Below, piece by piece: positions 48,331 to 48,704 of a stretch of 64,000 nucleotides of DNA. The translations under genes and the position numbers were made by a program. How positions within the stretch are numbered: the first letter of the stretch is position 1; the number at the start of each line of letters is the position of its first letter. The DNA comes from Lama glama. Lineage: Eukaryota. The DNA lies in assembly GCA_028534125.1 (NCBI GenBank), contig CM052816.1:79176001-79240000 (forward strand), read 5' to 3'. The notes beneath the pieces were generated by a model, which searched no databases, was not told the origin of the DNA, and was given only the letters and a program-made list of their open reading frames with translations.

Positions 48331-48602
48331 TCTAGGGCTTTTTATCTTAATGCAAGAAATGATGGCCGTGGGGAAACTGTAGCTGGCCAGTGGGTAGATG
48401 GGTTTTTGGTGGCCCTTGCAAATGTTCTGTCTCCGAGCGAAAAGGCAAGCCAGTCTCCCCTGCCCAACTCGCCTGAGCCTGCTGGGTGGCCGGTGGCCAA
48501 ACTCAATAGAAAAGACTTCAGGGAGAATGTAAACTGCTCTGCTATGATGAACATATTTTGACATCATTTCCTTCTTTTCCCCTTGCCTTTTATCCCCTTC
48601 AG

Positions 48603-48704
48603 GTTTCAAAAGAAGACTTTTTGAACTATTATGCTGGTGTTAGTGCTTCCATTGACACCGATGCCTATTTCATTTTAATGATGACGAAATCCTGGGGATT
48701 GTGA
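48603..48704 (+). CDS. CAPSL: Duplicated, alternative CAPSL terminal exon (putative)
   Basis: Long polypyrimidine tract then ttcag|GTT; encodes [33 protein letters not shown], 102 nt, phase 0, 23/33 aa identical to the canonical last exon. Confidence 0.75.

Follow-up and report, generated by a model that had tools for sequence, protein, structure and literature searches.

Does the CAPSL gene end in a single last coding exon, or in two that can be used in turn? The question is raised by a 64,000-nucleotide stretch of Lama glama DNA (GenBank assembly GCA_028534125.1, contig CM052816.1, positions 79,176,001 to 79,240,000 of the forward strand), which we call the window and number from its first base. 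An earlier reading of these letters, the original prediction, proposed that a second last exon of CAPSL lies downstream of the canonical one, that it arose by an old duplication and has been kept by purifying selection, that it is spliced from the donor of exon 3, and that the two exons could give mutually exclusive C-termini. The window is mammalian DNA. Upstream of CAPSL, two open frames on the forward strand (3443-4015 and 6304-6690) were recognised by eye as what we take to be UGT3A-like exons, while a frame at 59873-60544 on the reverse strand, also recognised by eye, presumably corresponds to the last, cytoplasmic-tail exon of IL7R. The window thus agrees with a UGT3A-CAPSL-IL7R neighbourhood. 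An assembly gap of 500 N lies at 8278-8777.

As for CAPSL itself, tblastn with the dog protein places coding exon 1 (its CDS part, from the ATG) at 34715-34851, with AG/GT borders and an open joined frame, and coding exon 2 at 36220-36397, with AG before and GT after. Coding exon 3 (36688-36897) ends in DKDGL in phase 0, with the donor TTG/GTGAGT (slash at the exon border) after 36897. The canonical last coding exon, hereafter 4A, occupies 41271-41372 and consists of 33 codons and a TAA, all 33 residues being those of the dog and primate canonical tails; candidate poly(A) signals follow at 41518, 41639 and 41669. The second last exon, hereafter 4B, is found at 48603-48704, with 33 codons and a TGA. 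Both copies are on the forward strand and translate as the original prediction had them; 4B lies downstream of 4A within the CAPSL-IL7R interval, 7,230 bases from the stop of 4A to the start of 4B, or 7,332 from start to start. Exons 1 to 3 followed by either last exon, 4A or 4B, give an open frame of 208 codons.

The signals around 4B, read from sequence, are those expected of the terminal exon that had been proposed: the branch-point-like motif, pyrimidine tract, acceptor and poly(A) signal were all confirmed. TTTTGAC (48556-48562) stands 41 bases upstream of the 4B acceptor and is followed by a pyrimidine tract and CAG acceptor (48563-48602), the border reading cag/G. Over positions -40 to -4, 89% of the bases are pyrimidines, compared with 65% for 4A. 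Beyond its own stop codon, 4B has a putative 3' UTR (48705-49190, the end being approximate) with a poly(A) signal of its own, AATAAA at 49164-49169, and a downstream T/G-rich element about 35 bases farther on.

The two exons are clearly related. They agree at 69 of 102 bases and at 23 of 33 residues, with the same length and phase and zero indels. Synonymous codons are possible for 20 of the identical residues, and at 12 of these the codons differ; the residue and codon counts agree with those of the original prediction. By the Nei-Gojobori method, pS is 0.88 and pN is 0.18, i.e., synonymous sites are saturated, as an old duplication would have it. When the 4B peptide was compared with the 2,178 stop-to-stop frames of the window, its sole non-self match was the 4A frame (E 3e-14), the next best having an E of 1.5. 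No homology was found between the flanks of 4A and 4B by blastn of 1.1 kb around each copy, 63 bases being aligned, all within the exon. Likewise, tblastn with the dog CAPSL protein found no other duplicated CAPSL exon in the window, exons 1 to 3 occurring once each and the last exon twice. Both results are as originally claimed. A retrocopy or a second CAPSL gene was rejected because the window contains no duplicate of any other CAPSL exon and the homology ends at the exon borders.

Three further features of the pair were observed. First, the synonymous differences are clustered, with 10/11 in codons 1-15 and 0/7 in codons 16-23 (41271-41369 versus 48603-48701; Fisher p 0.00025, post hoc), and 4A and 4B share identical runs of 16 and 8 bases, the longer of which, TCCATTGACACCGATG, starts from codon 16. 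Partial gene conversion, constraint at the nucleotide level or chance are possible explanations for this clustering. Second, GC3 is 0.88 in 4A and 0.42 in 4B. Third, the stop-to-stop frames around both exons are equally long, 192 bases with the exon from codon 32 (41178-41369 and 48510-48701), which is probably a coincidence since blastn finds no homology between the flanks.

If 4B were a dead duplicated fragment, it would be expected to decay at the pace of its surroundings in other mammals. Protein searches with two queries, a 40-residue reference across the acceptor (including seven intron codons) and the 33-residue peptide, yielded ten further mammalian copies: nine reading frames from the Logan collection that include intron flank and one rhinoceros model. 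In the nine Logan frames, with flanks aligned ungapped from the exon borders and compared as protein, identity to the window is 273/297 (92%) within exon 4B, 63/179 (35%) in the 20 codons upstream and 16/64 (25%) downstream. Conservation thus begins at the acceptor and ends at the stop, as that of a coding sequence would. Pairwise comparison of the same nine frames and the window (45 pairs) gives a mean of 92% and a minimum of 82% for the exon, against a mean of 28% for the 20 upstream codons, which bears out the claim of purifying selection for the copies recovered, a set found by similarity from which decayed copies would be missing. The branch-point region is shared as well, the in-frame translations of all nine Logan frames agreeing with a TTTGA(C/T) core (HILT in six, FDT or FDL in three, read by eye).

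Frame, length and the position of the stop at codon 34 are kept in 12/12 copies of 4B, counting as TGA a W that four B-type frames (P0004, P0006, P0008 and P0011) show at the place where the window has TGA. This W is likely to reflect a gene caller that translates TGA as W rather than a loss of the stop, because some proteins of the Logan collection are read with TGA as W, and because a W also follows directly on the final L in the A-type frames P0110, P0130, P0142, P0150, P0152 and P0157. Stops, frameshifts, loss of the acceptor and conservation at the level of the flanks, by which a dead fragment would be recognised, are absent from these copies, bearing in mind that a search by similarity would miss decayed ones. 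As judged by these alignments, 4B is not a dead fragment, and other mammals conserve it as coding sequence.

Whether 4B had been annotated in any species was left as a query by the original prediction, and the answer is that it is present in public protein sets of several, where entries from dog, platypus (X2), one frog and five fishes show it joined to exon 3, in line with the splicing that had been proposed. The canid entry (P0012, UniRef100_A0A8I3MVM6) contains a full CAPSL frame in which exon 3 is joined directly to 4B; 201 of 208 residues are those of the window's own exon 3 + 4B join, and the nine sites at which it differs from its partner P0292 are all in the last exon. Unlike the window's frame, this entry is named "UDP glycosyltransferase 3 family, polypeptide A2" (the neighbour gene UGT3A2) and has a 226-residue N-terminal extension that resembles a translated 5' leader. 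The platypus isoforms X1 (P0305) and X2 (P0175), each 208 residues long, differ within 177-207 and nowhere else. Six of the eight fish and frog pairs that we compared differ only at residues 178-207, namely those of Pseudophryne corroboree, Amia ocellicauda, Anguilla anguilla, Betta splendens, Sander lucioperca and Gouania willdenowi. As for the other two, all aligned residues of the Scleropages pair are the same, and the Erpetoichthys sequences come from separate genes with 58 differences. These RefSeq CAPSL/capslb X1/X2 pairs (for platypus, XP_039767434.1 versus X1) match what is seen in the window: the lengths are equal, the sequences are identical up to residue 175-177 and diverge within the last 33 residues only, and 4B of the window groups with their B exons. 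They differ from it in being automatic models from other species, as are all the XP_ and UniProt entries cited here. The B exons also differ among themselves at two residues, since those of eutherians have A11 and T19 like the A exon, whereas those of fish, frog and platypus have S or C at position 11 and S at position 19.

Together, these comparisons make it likely that an old vertebrate alternative last coding exon of CAPSL has its eutherian ortholog at 48603-48704, and that CAPSL can probably make two proteins with different tails. Pre-mRNA that escapes cleavage at the poly(A) sites of 4A would extend some 7 kb farther, splicing would connect the exon 3 donor (after 36897) with the acceptor of 4B (before 48603), the transcript would end beyond the AATAAA at 49164, and the product would be a 208-residue CAPSL with a B tail. 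We infer that this animal splices 4B and that the tails have different functions. Alternative homologous exons produced by tandem exon duplication were reportedly described by Kondrashov and Koonin in 2001 and by Letunic and colleagues in 2002. Exons 4A and 4B resemble that class in being adjacent and homologous, equal in length and phase, and used as alternatives. They differ from it in being terminal exons that have separate stops and poly(A) signals, and the choice between them would therefore involve cleavage and polyadenylation as well as splicing.

How old this pair may be was addressed with a maximum-likelihood tree of 19 exon peptides. The A exons and B exons fall on opposite sides of one branch (support 91/97, 94% of bootstrap trees), and 4B of the window is placed with the B exons of rhinoceros, dog and platypus, which agrees with the old duplication proposed from the codon counts. 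If the root lies on or outside the A/B branch, the duplication would be older than the split between ray-finned fishes and tetrapods, an age that is suggestive rather than firm because the tree has 33 columns. An origin of the A/B pair before vertebrates was rejected, since invertebrate copies, when added to the comparison, cluster contig by contig and join neither the A nor the B exons of vertebrates. In eutherians, the B exon has diverged further than the A exon, with a pN of 0.20 against a fish-like B exon compared with 0.04 for A; this greater change of mammalian B could reflect relaxed constraint on that lineage. A scan of metagenomes with 4B returned 66 loci that look invertebrate-, protist- or fish-like, and no mammalian ortholog was found among them: 65 are at most 73% identical, and L066 is a 20-residue partial match at 90%.

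The long mammalian B branch (pN 0.20) is also what one would see if the B exon had worked in earlier vertebrates and were now a relic in eutherians, unspliced in placentals and slowly decaying. In the same direction, a search with the exon 3 + 4B junction among proteins shorter than 238 residues found no eutherian spliced B form, and none from Logan assemblies, in the 120 of 273 matches listed, although clustering at 90% identity can hide such forms. A search of public sequencing runs found no RNA run that contains 48540-49200, the 14 runs guessed to be RNA sharing 13-30% of its words. Slow decay sits poorly with an exon that is 92% identical between flanks that are 25-35% identical, in nine frames whose flanks differ from each other, with the frame, length and stop position kept in all 12 copies (with the four W at codon 34 taken as TGA), and with the dog entry, which joins exon 3 to 4B. 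We therefore hold a eutherian relic to be unlikely.

A second alternative accepts that 4B is used, mainly via a donor within 4A. The window has GGG/GTGAGC at 41304-41312, after codon 12 of 4A (after 41306) and in frame with 4B, which would give a protein of 220 residues with 12 codons of 4A and all of 4B. Exactly this join is seen in 220-residue models from snow leopard (P0301, XP_049504148.1) and black bear (P0303, XP_045643193.1), where the first 12 codons of 4A lead into 4B, both having been hidden by the clustering mentioned above. The corresponding join in the window is open and 214/220 identical to P0301, and a fish model from Dallia (P0208) has the matching pattern, 12 codons of A joined to B. 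Querying proteins with the 220-residue join brought up no additional eutherian examples. The main eutherian cluster has 229 members, of which 40 were examined, so that other entries with the B exon may exist. Against this route, the dog, platypus, frog and fish entries join exon 3 directly to the B exon, and gene predictors may prefer the longer join because it adds coding sequence. The predicted structures point the same way. The model of the 220-residue form has a mean pLDDT of 77.6, falling below 50 at residues 188-204, at and after the 4A/4B join, compared with a mean of 87.5 for the 208-residue B isoform of platypus. Because of this poorer predicted fold, we rank the 220-residue form as minor or artefactual, and its being the main route to 4B as quite improbable. 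That 4B is instead the terminal exon of a separate transcript not begun at the CAPSL promoter, as in a 94-residue rhinoceros "hypothetical protein" (P0009, KAF5912142.1) that ends in the B exon behind an unrelated N-terminal part, is very improbable, since this entry is one submitter's model whose upstream part matches no family, half an EF-hand of 33 residues would be of no evident use by itself, and only joining to CAPSL explains why the phase-0 fit to the exon 3 donor has been conserved.

With 4B taken as an alternative last exon joined directly to exon 3, the consequences for the protein can be read from the model of the platypus isoform. The 4B form would have 208 residues, identical to the canonical protein through residue 175 and different at 10 of the last 33. 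The exchanged segment comprises the end of the EF-hand 4 loop, the exiting helix and the C-terminal helix; in the platypus model, the exon forms a bridge (residues 176-177) and two helices, one at 178-190 that exits EF-hand 4 and one at 195-205 at the C terminus. Calcyphosin (CAPS; PDB 3e3r) and CAPSL in the transition-zone doublet (PDB 11yj) share with the 4B form a four-EF-hand fold and a homologous C-terminal stretch of 33 residues. They differ from it in having a CAPS or A-type tail: all 40 CAPSL chains of 11yj carry the A tail, and there is no structure with a B tail.

According to a structural preprint, which used the canonical isoform (bioRxiv 10.64898/2026.06.11.731632), CAPSL is the main protein inside transition-zone microtubule doublets, where it binds alpha-tubulin via helices H1 and H3 and loop L1, while its EF-hands face away from tubulin and neighbouring molecules touch via EF-1 and EF-3. 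Since the EF-hands face away from tubulin, our guess is that the B tail tunes the calcium response, lateral packing or a lumen-facing partner, and not tubulin binding itself. Several microtubule inner proteins, from ciliates and others (RIB22, RIB57, RIB35, DMIP20 and DMIP18; PDB 8g2z, 9e78 and 9e2g), are full-length sequence relatives of CAPSL, and the family may thus have bound microtubules from the lumenal side since early on. A retinal vascular disease has been linked to variants of CAPSL (PMC11392532).

Tandem copies of the last exon are also found in contigs that look invertebrate- or protist-like. Among the 66 metagenome loci, four intron-less, cDNA-like contigs contain a full CAPSL-like frame and a second intact 33-codon copy that starts 2-25 bases after codon 33 of the first, the copies being at positions 672 and 779 in L003, 681 and 782 in L006, 592 and 697 in L022, and 705 and 829 in L051. 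In L006, the stop TGA is made of TG and the first A of copy 2. Such an arrangement points to mRNAs containing the two copies together, where copy 1 would serve as a cassette that carries a stop. A genomic contig, L032, has three copies (309, 1047 and 1966), each behind a CAG, and L005/L044, a single invertebrate- or protist-like contig, has tandem copies as well. Since the invertebrate-like copies group by contig, duplication of the last exon outside vertebrates would be recurrent, or the copies homogenised. Mutually exclusive C-termini, as in the original prediction, may describe the situation only in part: the isoform pairs fit, but the snow leopard, black bear and Dallia models join 12 A codons to B, and the four invertebrate-like cDNA-like contigs carry both copies.

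Exon 4B is thus already in automatic annotations of several species and is apparently undescribed in print. A literature search, made mostly of search listings, found no paper on an alternative last exon of CAPSL, the transition-zone preprint, in its available portion, names the canonical protein only, and a second tail goes unmentioned in the CAPSL studies found, most of them as listings. What appears to be new to print is the age of 4B, the orthology of the A and B exons, and the conservation of 4B in placental mammals.

Long coding constraint on a second tail implies a second functional form of CAPSL, with 10 residues changed. If so, the 7 kb past the annotated 3' end would belong to CAPSL, variants in this part of the CAPSL-IL7R interval could affect coding sequence, and knock-outs and antibodies might reach one form or both. 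More tentatively, animals might repeatedly require two interchangeable tails in their calcyphosin-like family, a need met in vertebrates by a pair that apparently dates from before the split of ray-finned fishes and tetrapods and in the invertebrate-like contigs by copies of their own, a generalisation that we put forward as a possibility and regard as doubtful at present. Were it true, structural and genetic work to date would cover just one of two proteins, and the two tails could specify two lumenal microtubule coats, for example that of the transition zone versus that of other microtubules, or calcium-sensitive versus calcium-insensitive packing.
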